IMG/VR virus record: IMGVR_UViG_2529292829_000009
Direction: 5' to 3' (one strand)
Length of the DNA stretch: 11,715 nt
Origin: a virus
Lineage: Duplodnaviria; Heunggongvirae; Uroviricota; Caudoviricetes
How positions within the stretch are numbered: the stretch's first letter is position 1; every line of letters begins with the position of its first letter. The translations under genes were made by a program, and so were the position numbers. The notes below the pieces were generated by a model. It was given only the letters and a program-made list of their open reading frames with translations. It was not told the origin of the DNA and ran no database searches. This document shows positions 8,861 to 9,095 of the stretch, piece by piece.

Positions 8861-9095
8861 CGCTGCCGCCATTTTGTCGCCATCATTAAAAAACAGTGCT
8901 TCTAACTTCATGATTTTAAAAGGCATAAATTTCAGGCAACAAAAAACCCATCAACCTTGAACCGAAATGGCGGGGGTGATGGGCTCCACAAAATGGGGAC
9001 ATCAAAGAAAAGCAGTGGCACTAATTAAGACTGATGCCCTGCGGAAAAGTTCTGCGGTTGTGCAAAAAAATTTCATTTTCAGGGCAACTTCAGTT
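8861..9095. other. Prophage/host junction region (attR expected here; core not identified)
   Basis: AT-rich 235-bp non-coding gap between the last phage gene (ogr) and the 3' end of host ybjL; in P2 the attachment site lies directly downstream of ogr. Confidence 0.4.

Follow-up and report, generated by a model that had tools for sequence, protein, structure and literature searches.

The junction at 8861−9095 as the attR site of a P2-family prophage in the 3′ end of the small RNA gene rybB

The 235-bp spacer at 8861−9095 between the convergent genes ogr (+) and ybjL (−) is, with a probability of about 0.95, the attR site of a P2-family prophage with a lysogeny module of the 186/Fels-2 type, integrated by a tyrosine integrase into the 3′ end of rybB. 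Position of the junction, attachment core, integrity of rybB, structure of attP and prevalence of such insertions are established. The finding itself is already known, being a known kind of element at the known rybB site, and its importance beyond a correct annotation is small. The prophage boundary can be placed to the base, at 8937/8938 on the phage side with the end of the core at 8951. Additionally, the sRNA gene rybB, for which the RefSeq feature tables list “none” under the corresponding stretch, is restored to the annotation.

The window, i.e. the whole stretch of 11,715 nucleotides that was analyzed, holds one end of the prophage. Core repeat and integrase were read in related lysogens and phages instead, the att-region DNA of which is 96−99.5% identical to the window or to one another. 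The features on which the argument is based are the following:

7451−8551, + strand: D gene, a P2-type late gene (Pfam Phage_GPD)
8642−8860, + strand: ogr, late-gene activator of the ogr/Delta type and last gene of the prophage (Pfam PF04606 Ogr_Delta, E 5e-22)
8861−8937, + strand: phage arm of attR, corresponding to the ogr-side arm of attP; aligns with the attP of phage KP12 and the attR of other lysogens, not with the empty site of MG1655
8864−8874 and 8875−8885, + strand: two tandem integrase arm-type sites of the 186 type, predicted by sequence match to the consensus
8925−8951, + strand: extended core homology of 27 bp
8938−8951: common core of attP and attB, zone of strand exchange; 14 bp, perfect
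8938−9019, − strand: rybB, complete gene of an Hfq-dependent sRNA of the sigmaE envelope-stress regulon (Rfam RF00110)
8945−8985, − strand: intrinsic terminator hairpin of RybB, from the fold of the minus-strand RNA
8952−9095: host DNA in the spacer
9026−9052, − strand: putative sigmaE promoter of rybB (−35 GAACTT at 9052−9047, −10 TCTTA at 9030−9026)
9096−10781, − strand: ybjL, host gene of the aspartate:alanine antiporter family (Pfam Asp-Al_Ex, E 7e-84, and TrkA_C; RefSeq annotation)

Position of the junction and extent of the core

A megablast search with 8600−9400 against 5426 complete E. coli genomes revealed two classes of matches. The full query, with both ogr and ybjL under it, was matched in 1115 of these genomes, which represent attR. 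The remaining matches (about 4300 complete genomes) begin at query base 326, equivalent to 8925 of the window, and have ybjL alone underneath. Of the 5426 genomes, 1105 matched a probe for attL with a coverage of at least 80%, and in unoccupied genomes the match to the attL query is exact up to the last T of AACAAAAAACCCAT and then stops. Approximately 20% of the complete E. coli genomes are occupied at the rybB site. In the matching RefSeq genomes the ogr homologue is labelled as an ogr/Delta-like zinc finger protein.

A comparison of MG1655 with the window base by base showed differences at 8929, 8933, 8936 and 8937, followed by identity from 8938 to the end of the window with the exception of 8976 and of 11554 in grxA, i.e. 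two differences in the 2778 positions of the host part. The initial annotation had described ogr and ybjL as convergent and the prophage as ending within the 235-bp spacer. Both statements are borne out by the empty sites, which match from 8925 onwards only and perfectly from 8938. The comparison with an uninfected rcdA−ybjL spacer and with the integrase end of the prophage, proposed there as a check, located the core exactly at 8938−8951.

In an alignment of six sequences AACAAAAAACCCAT is the sole block common to attB (MG1655), attP (Klebsiella phage KP12), attL (M9682-C1 and 52F4) and attR (the window). At the empty site of MG1655 the rcdA stop is followed by ...GATAAGTTTTAGAT (ending AGAT), AACAAAAAACCCAT and CAACCTTGAACC..., the rybB side beginning with CAACCTTG. 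At the left prophage ends of M9682-C1 (L001) and 52F4 (L006), host DNA ...TTTTAGAT (ending AGAT) passes through AACAAAAAACCCAT into TTATGTAAAyGGGTT...int. The core repeat of M9682-C1 is located at 22424−22437 of L001 with int at 22512−23564; this direct repeat adjoining a tyrosine integrase is also found in 52F4. By its Pfam domains (Int_N, Phage_integrase) the integrase of the related lysogens is a tyrosine recombinase. The free attP of KP12 (L004 1424−1640) shows the order ogr, arm, core, hairpin, int: the ogr stop and 77 bp, ...TTTCAGAC (ending CAGAC), lead to AACAAAAAACCCAT and TTATGTAAACGGGTT..., with the int stop codon 59 bp on. Its match to the window ends after 8951.

The two lysogens used for the left end, the closest of those examined, carry altered prophages. 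They were consulted for the att ends alone and do not stand for an intact phage. M9682-C1 (L001 32155−34710) is the genome closest to the junction region (99.5%), and its rybB-site prophage is degraded: it holds two IS1 copies, most late genes are lost, and D is reduced to a fragment of 114 bp. In 52F4 (L006 23800−24300) the integrase is replaced by a different allele, an extra small ORF is present, and the 3′ end of the canonical int gene, arm block included, persists as a remnant beside the core at attL. Further peculiarities of the 52F4 prophage are an internal deletion, with fragments of lysozyme and fil now adjacent, and a gene of the SIR2 family located between baseplate V and the virion morphogenesis genes.

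The start of the megablast matches to empty sites at 8925 reflects the extended homology ATAAATTTCAGGCAACAAAAAACCCAT of 27 bp. In the attB of E. coli four substitutions within its left 13 bp (8925−8937) leave a perfect core of 14 bp. Identity with attP extends over ATAAATTTCAGGCAACAAAAAACCCAT, the full 27 bp of 8925−8951, in Escherichia sp. MOD1-EC7003 and E1V33. Similarly, in most hosts other than E. coli, including two other Escherichia species, the host flank left of the core, ...ATTTCAGGC, equals the phage arm (loci L009−L022). When one genome per GTDB species was scanned for the exact pattern, the junction of core and phage hairpin was present in 14 species representatives, belonging to about eight enterobacterial genera: Escherichia (the two non-coli species), Klebsiella, Raoultella, Citrobacter, Leclercia, Silvania, Scandinavium and other Enterobacteriaceae.

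The four variable positions 8929, 8933, 8936 and 8937 are informative with regard to the crossover. In E. coli lysogens each of them has the phage base in attR and the host base in attL; the exchange therefore takes place right of 8937, within the 14 bp. Inspection by eye for inverted repeats of core type around these 14 bp gave nothing convincing.

The rybB gene and its terminator

The Rfam scan of the whole window returned a single match, RybB (RF00110), at 8938−9016 on the minus strand with 100.3 bits and an E value of 3.9e-20. The match spans the full model, 1−79 of 79, at a gathering score of 40. The 5′ end of the gene is presumably at 9019 (GCCACUGC...), as placed from the published RybB sequence. 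Upstream of 9019 the motif GAACTT, 16 nt and TCTTA was read by eye and is the same as in MG1655; the promoter is presumably sigmaE-dependent, as is known of rybB. The position of rybB between rcdA (ybjK) and ybjL is conserved, and 8938−9095 is identical to the MG1655 spacer except for 8976. The initial annotation was thus right in placing a prophage/host junction here, but not in placing it next to ybjL: it adjoins rybB, and a complete sRNA gene with its own putative promoter stands between the prophage end and ybjL.

On the minus strand the core is ATGGGTTTTTTGTT and corresponds to the final 14 nt of both rybB and the Rfam RybB model. The attachment core, which the initial annotation had not recognized, is accordingly the 3′ end of rybB, an attachment site both published and annotated in GenBank. 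ARAGORN found no tRNA and no tmRNA in the window, and a target of either type was rejected on this basis.

The dyad reported at 8947..8983 with a long loop is real, with the arms CCCATCA at 8947−8953 and TGATGGG at 8977−8983. It is the terminator of the host gene rybB and not an att-site feature of the phage. Of its stem, only the five terminal bases on the 3′ side fall in the core, which is completed by the U-tail. The inverted repeat widens to arms of 10 nt (8947−8956 and 8974−8983) with 90% complementarity and 17 nt between them; in the fold of the minus strand the hairpin is followed by UUUUUUGUU, the U-tail at the Hfq-binding 3′ end being U6GUU. The claim that it is the only dyad does not hold, as the spacer 8861−9095 contains two more weak inverted repeats. 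An intrinsic-terminator scan over both strands of the window found none; the loop limit of the tool, 8 nt, excludes the RybB hairpin, and the scan was limited to the window, outside of which the phage hairpin described below is situated.

The sole unusual detail of the junction is a rare SNP in the terminator stem of RybB. At 8976 the window has G in place of the T of K-12 and of practically all other E. coli; in the RNA this is an A-to-C change on the 5′ side of the stem, by which one pair is broken. The number of perfect dyad pairs is reduced from 10 to 7, compared to an outer stem of 12 uninterrupted pairs in the K-12 version, and the minimum free energy of the fold amounts to −19.9 kcal mol−1 for the window versus −24.1 kcal mol−1 for MG1655. 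Because the SNP breaks this stem pair, a reader of the sequence sees seven perfect pairs and a long loop, as had been noted. The 71-mer 8940−9010 bearing the SNP occurs in one of 5421 E. coli records, STEC17-190, where the rybB site is empty, the backbone is different and the flank differs elsewhere. Judging from this distribution, the change is rare and has apparently arisen more than once, unless it is a sequencing error. It may alter the termination of RybB or the binding of Hfq in the strain that carries it.

Structure of attP, integration and related phages

The phage arm of attR begins with the two tandem arm-type sites TGCCGCCATTT (8864−8874) and TGTCGCCATCA (8875−8885). Published consensus sequences for such sites are tgccGCCActt for the 186 type and tgTGGaCa for the P2 type (PMC3448106), and the first copy, TGCCGCCATTT, matches the former. 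In the attP of KP12 a block of 20 nt, CTGCCGCCAaTTTGTCGCCA, is found on both arms (L004 1426−1445 and 1609−1628, 95% identical), the second being located inside the 3′ end of int. Each block consists of two tandem copies of the motif and corresponds to 8863−8882 of the window. On the basis of this arrangement the integrase would bind the arm repeats.

Further elements were observed on both arms. Between the arm-type sites and the core, the phage arm contains at 8899−8922 an AT-rich imperfect palindrome, CTTCTAACTTCATGATTTTAAAAG, the minus strand of which holds an IHF-like motif, AATCATGAAGTTA, assigned by eye with one mismatch. The palindrome may be a site for an accessory factor. The int-side arm of the KP12 attP carries two tandem AAAACAATAAGTT units that resemble IHF sites.

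Downstream of int, the phage has a hairpin of its own (AACCCAUUUAcauAAAUGGGUUUUUUGUU; stem AACCCAUUUAcauAAAUGGGUU, then UUUUGUU), which is completed by the 14-nt core in attP and in attL. Two folds of it gave −9.4 and −9.0 kcal mol−1 with z-scores of −2.9 and −1.9, and U6 follows it. A natural A/G variant in its 5′ arm retains pairing as G-U. We infer that this hairpin is the terminator of the cI−int lysogenic transcript.

From these elements the following course of integration can be proposed. The attP, situated between ogr and int, duplicates the 14 nt with which rybB ends (ATGGGTTTTTTGTT in the orientation of rybB); its identity with the host reaches up to 27 bp where the 3′ flank of rybB is ...GCCTGAAATTTAT. 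The arm-type sites (TGCCGCCAyTT TGTCGCCA...) flank the core on both arms of attP, one pair of them being that at 8864−8885. Strand exchange inside the 14 bp, presumably with the exact cleavage points within the core, leaves a complete and unchanged rybB at the ogr end and a stub of 14 nt of rybB at the int end. It is because the core equals the last 14 nt of rybB that integration rebuilds the gene intact. The rebuilt rybB is a hybrid, the last 14 nt of which may be supplied by the phage. In the phage, the same 14 nt form the 3′ end of the stem and the U-tract of the hairpin downstream of int. If the phage hairpin acts as a terminator, the core would provide the terminator tail on the host side as well as on the phage side, and neither terminator would be lost on integration.

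Prophages at this site have been described repeatedly. Archer et al. 2011 named “rybB ncRNA” as the insertion site of the P2-type prophages Rybb*W, Rybb*B (with retron Ec86) and Rybb*Cr (PMC3032704). Nilsson et al. 2011 reported PhiECO1 (HS), PhiECO2 (ATCC 8739), PhiECO3 (CFT073) and PhiSEN1 at one shared site and assigned them to the Fels-2 group, among the phages with CI repressors of the 186 type (PMC3448106). Kpn38RybB of Hudson et al. 2014 is another P2-like prophage at rybB (PMC4048246), and hotspot #29 of Hochhauser et al. 2023 comprises Felsduovirus prophages only, integrated within rybB in 109 genomes (PMC10121019). In the GenBank record KY271398 (Klebsiella phage 4LV2017) attL and attR are annotated; the attR, CAGGCAACAAAAAACCCAT, is the same as 8933−8951 of the window and is followed by the Klebsiella rybB (Rfam match of 103 bits). 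The prophage of the window shares with the rybB-site P2-like prophages the locus between rcdA and ybjL, the core, the ogr−attP−int layout, the arm sites and the CI/CII/Fil lysogeny module of the 186 type. There is no qualitative difference; it is set apart by a late region at most 97.4% identical to any of the complete E. coli genomes and by the rare terminator SNP in the adjacent rybB.

With coliphage 186 (in a tRNA-Ile gene) and with Fels-2 and SopEPhi (in ssrA) the type of integrase, a tyrosine recombinase, is shared, as are the arm consensus tgccGCCActt and the principle that a small RNA gene is regenerated upon insertion from the copy of its 3′ end in attP. In contrast to their tRNA and tmRNA targets, the target here is an Hfq-dependent sRNA. 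The perfect core is also shorter, with 14 bp in E. coli compared to up to 50−110 nt in the tRNA-site relatives PhiESP and PhiKPN (PMC3448106). The general point, namely that temperate phages with integrases of the 186/Fels-2 type insert at the 3′ ends of genes for small stable RNAs and bring along their own version of that end as a substitute, is already established.

Phage P2 itself (locI) has the same ogr−attP−int layout at a different host site, and its core (AAAAAATAAGCCCGTGTAAGGGAGATT) has a length of about 27 bp, comparable to the extended core of about 27 bp found here. The P2 core gave no match in the window at up to three mismatches, and direct reading of 8861−8937 revealed no P2-type arm repeat resembling TGTGGACA. 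An att system of the P2 (locI) type was rejected since both this core and the arm repeats tgTGGaCa are absent; the arm sites are of the 186 type and not of the P2 type. This is in accordance with the earlier assumption that the phage uses a site other than that of P2. Relatives of P2 are also found at a second sRNA locus, cyaR (ryeE), namely Wphi2, P2*B and the ogr−D′ remnant of K-12 (PMC3032704).

Transcription across the junction and choice of the target

The arrangement of the genes raises the question of a regulatory role, in which transcripts of ogr or the late operon would continue across attR in antisense to rybB and enter the 3′ end of ybjL, with altered expression of these host genes. 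The genes ogr and rybB are convergent with 77 bp between them, so a plus-strand transcript from ogr would cross rybB in antisense before reaching ybjL. The window scan with its loop limit of 8 nt found no intrinsic terminator on the plus strand between ogr and ybjL, and on this strand the RybB hairpin is followed by CTCCACAAAA, without a T-run. However, in 186-type phages and P2 the lysogen does not express the ogr homologue; its expression is confined to lytic growth, when effects on host regulation matter little. The plus-strand fold of 8861−9000 is also not unusual (z = −1.2), and the arrangement simply follows from the position of attP beside ogr in all P2-like genomes. A regulatory role of the junction is therefore unlikely.

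A more specific version appears less probable still: upon induction, convergent late or ogr transcription could deplete or mask RybB and thereby shut one arm of the sigmaE response, and phages would choose the site partly for that reason. We regard this as very doubtful. The single paper retrieved in a literature search for work connecting RybB with ogr transcription was that on the genome of E. coli W.

With regard to the target, the prophage might recognize the rcdA−ybjL intergenic region as such, the overlap with rybB being incidental and the sRNA having no part in site choice or core selection. The core in E. coli is short with its 14 bp, the extended identity of 27 bp lies downstream of rybB and outside the mature RNA, and the mapping of the site by Nilsson et al. 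does not name the sRNA (PMC3448106). Against this, core and Rfam RybB model agree to the base at the 3′ end of the gene. Phages of the same type are also integrated at the 3′ end of rybB in Klebsiella, where the flank just left of the core is different (L005). In the 14 species representatives the core is invariant, whereas host DNA farther than about 10−20 bp to its left shows no relationship from one genus to another. In addition, the 3′ ends of RNA genes (tRNA, tmRNA) are documented targets of this group of integrases (PMC3448106). We consider a mere coincidence with rybB highly improbable and retain the 3′ end of rybB as the target. Finally, the case named in the initial annotation as contradicting its reading, in which 8861−9095 is entirely phage or entirely host with the true junction elsewhere, has virtually no chance of being correct, as it is already refuted by the breakpoints of the empty sites at 8925/8938 and of the free KP12 attP after 8951.

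Two observations concern the remainder of the window. It combines a K-12-like backbone with a prophage late region to which the collection of complete genomes contains nothing closely similar; over the window, the highest identity with a complete E. coli genome is 97.4%. Further upstream, the tail region comprises the following genes:

212−640: tail-fibre assembly gene (Caudo_TAP), in opposite orientation to the invertase
642−977: gene for a tail-fibre C-terminal part (Gp53-like_C), in opposite orientation to the invertase
999−1571: serine DNA invertase (Pfam Resolvase and HTH_7)

From its gene content, the segment 212−1571 appears to be a host-range segment that can be inverted in the manner of Mu Gin or P1 Cin, placed in a P2-like tail region.
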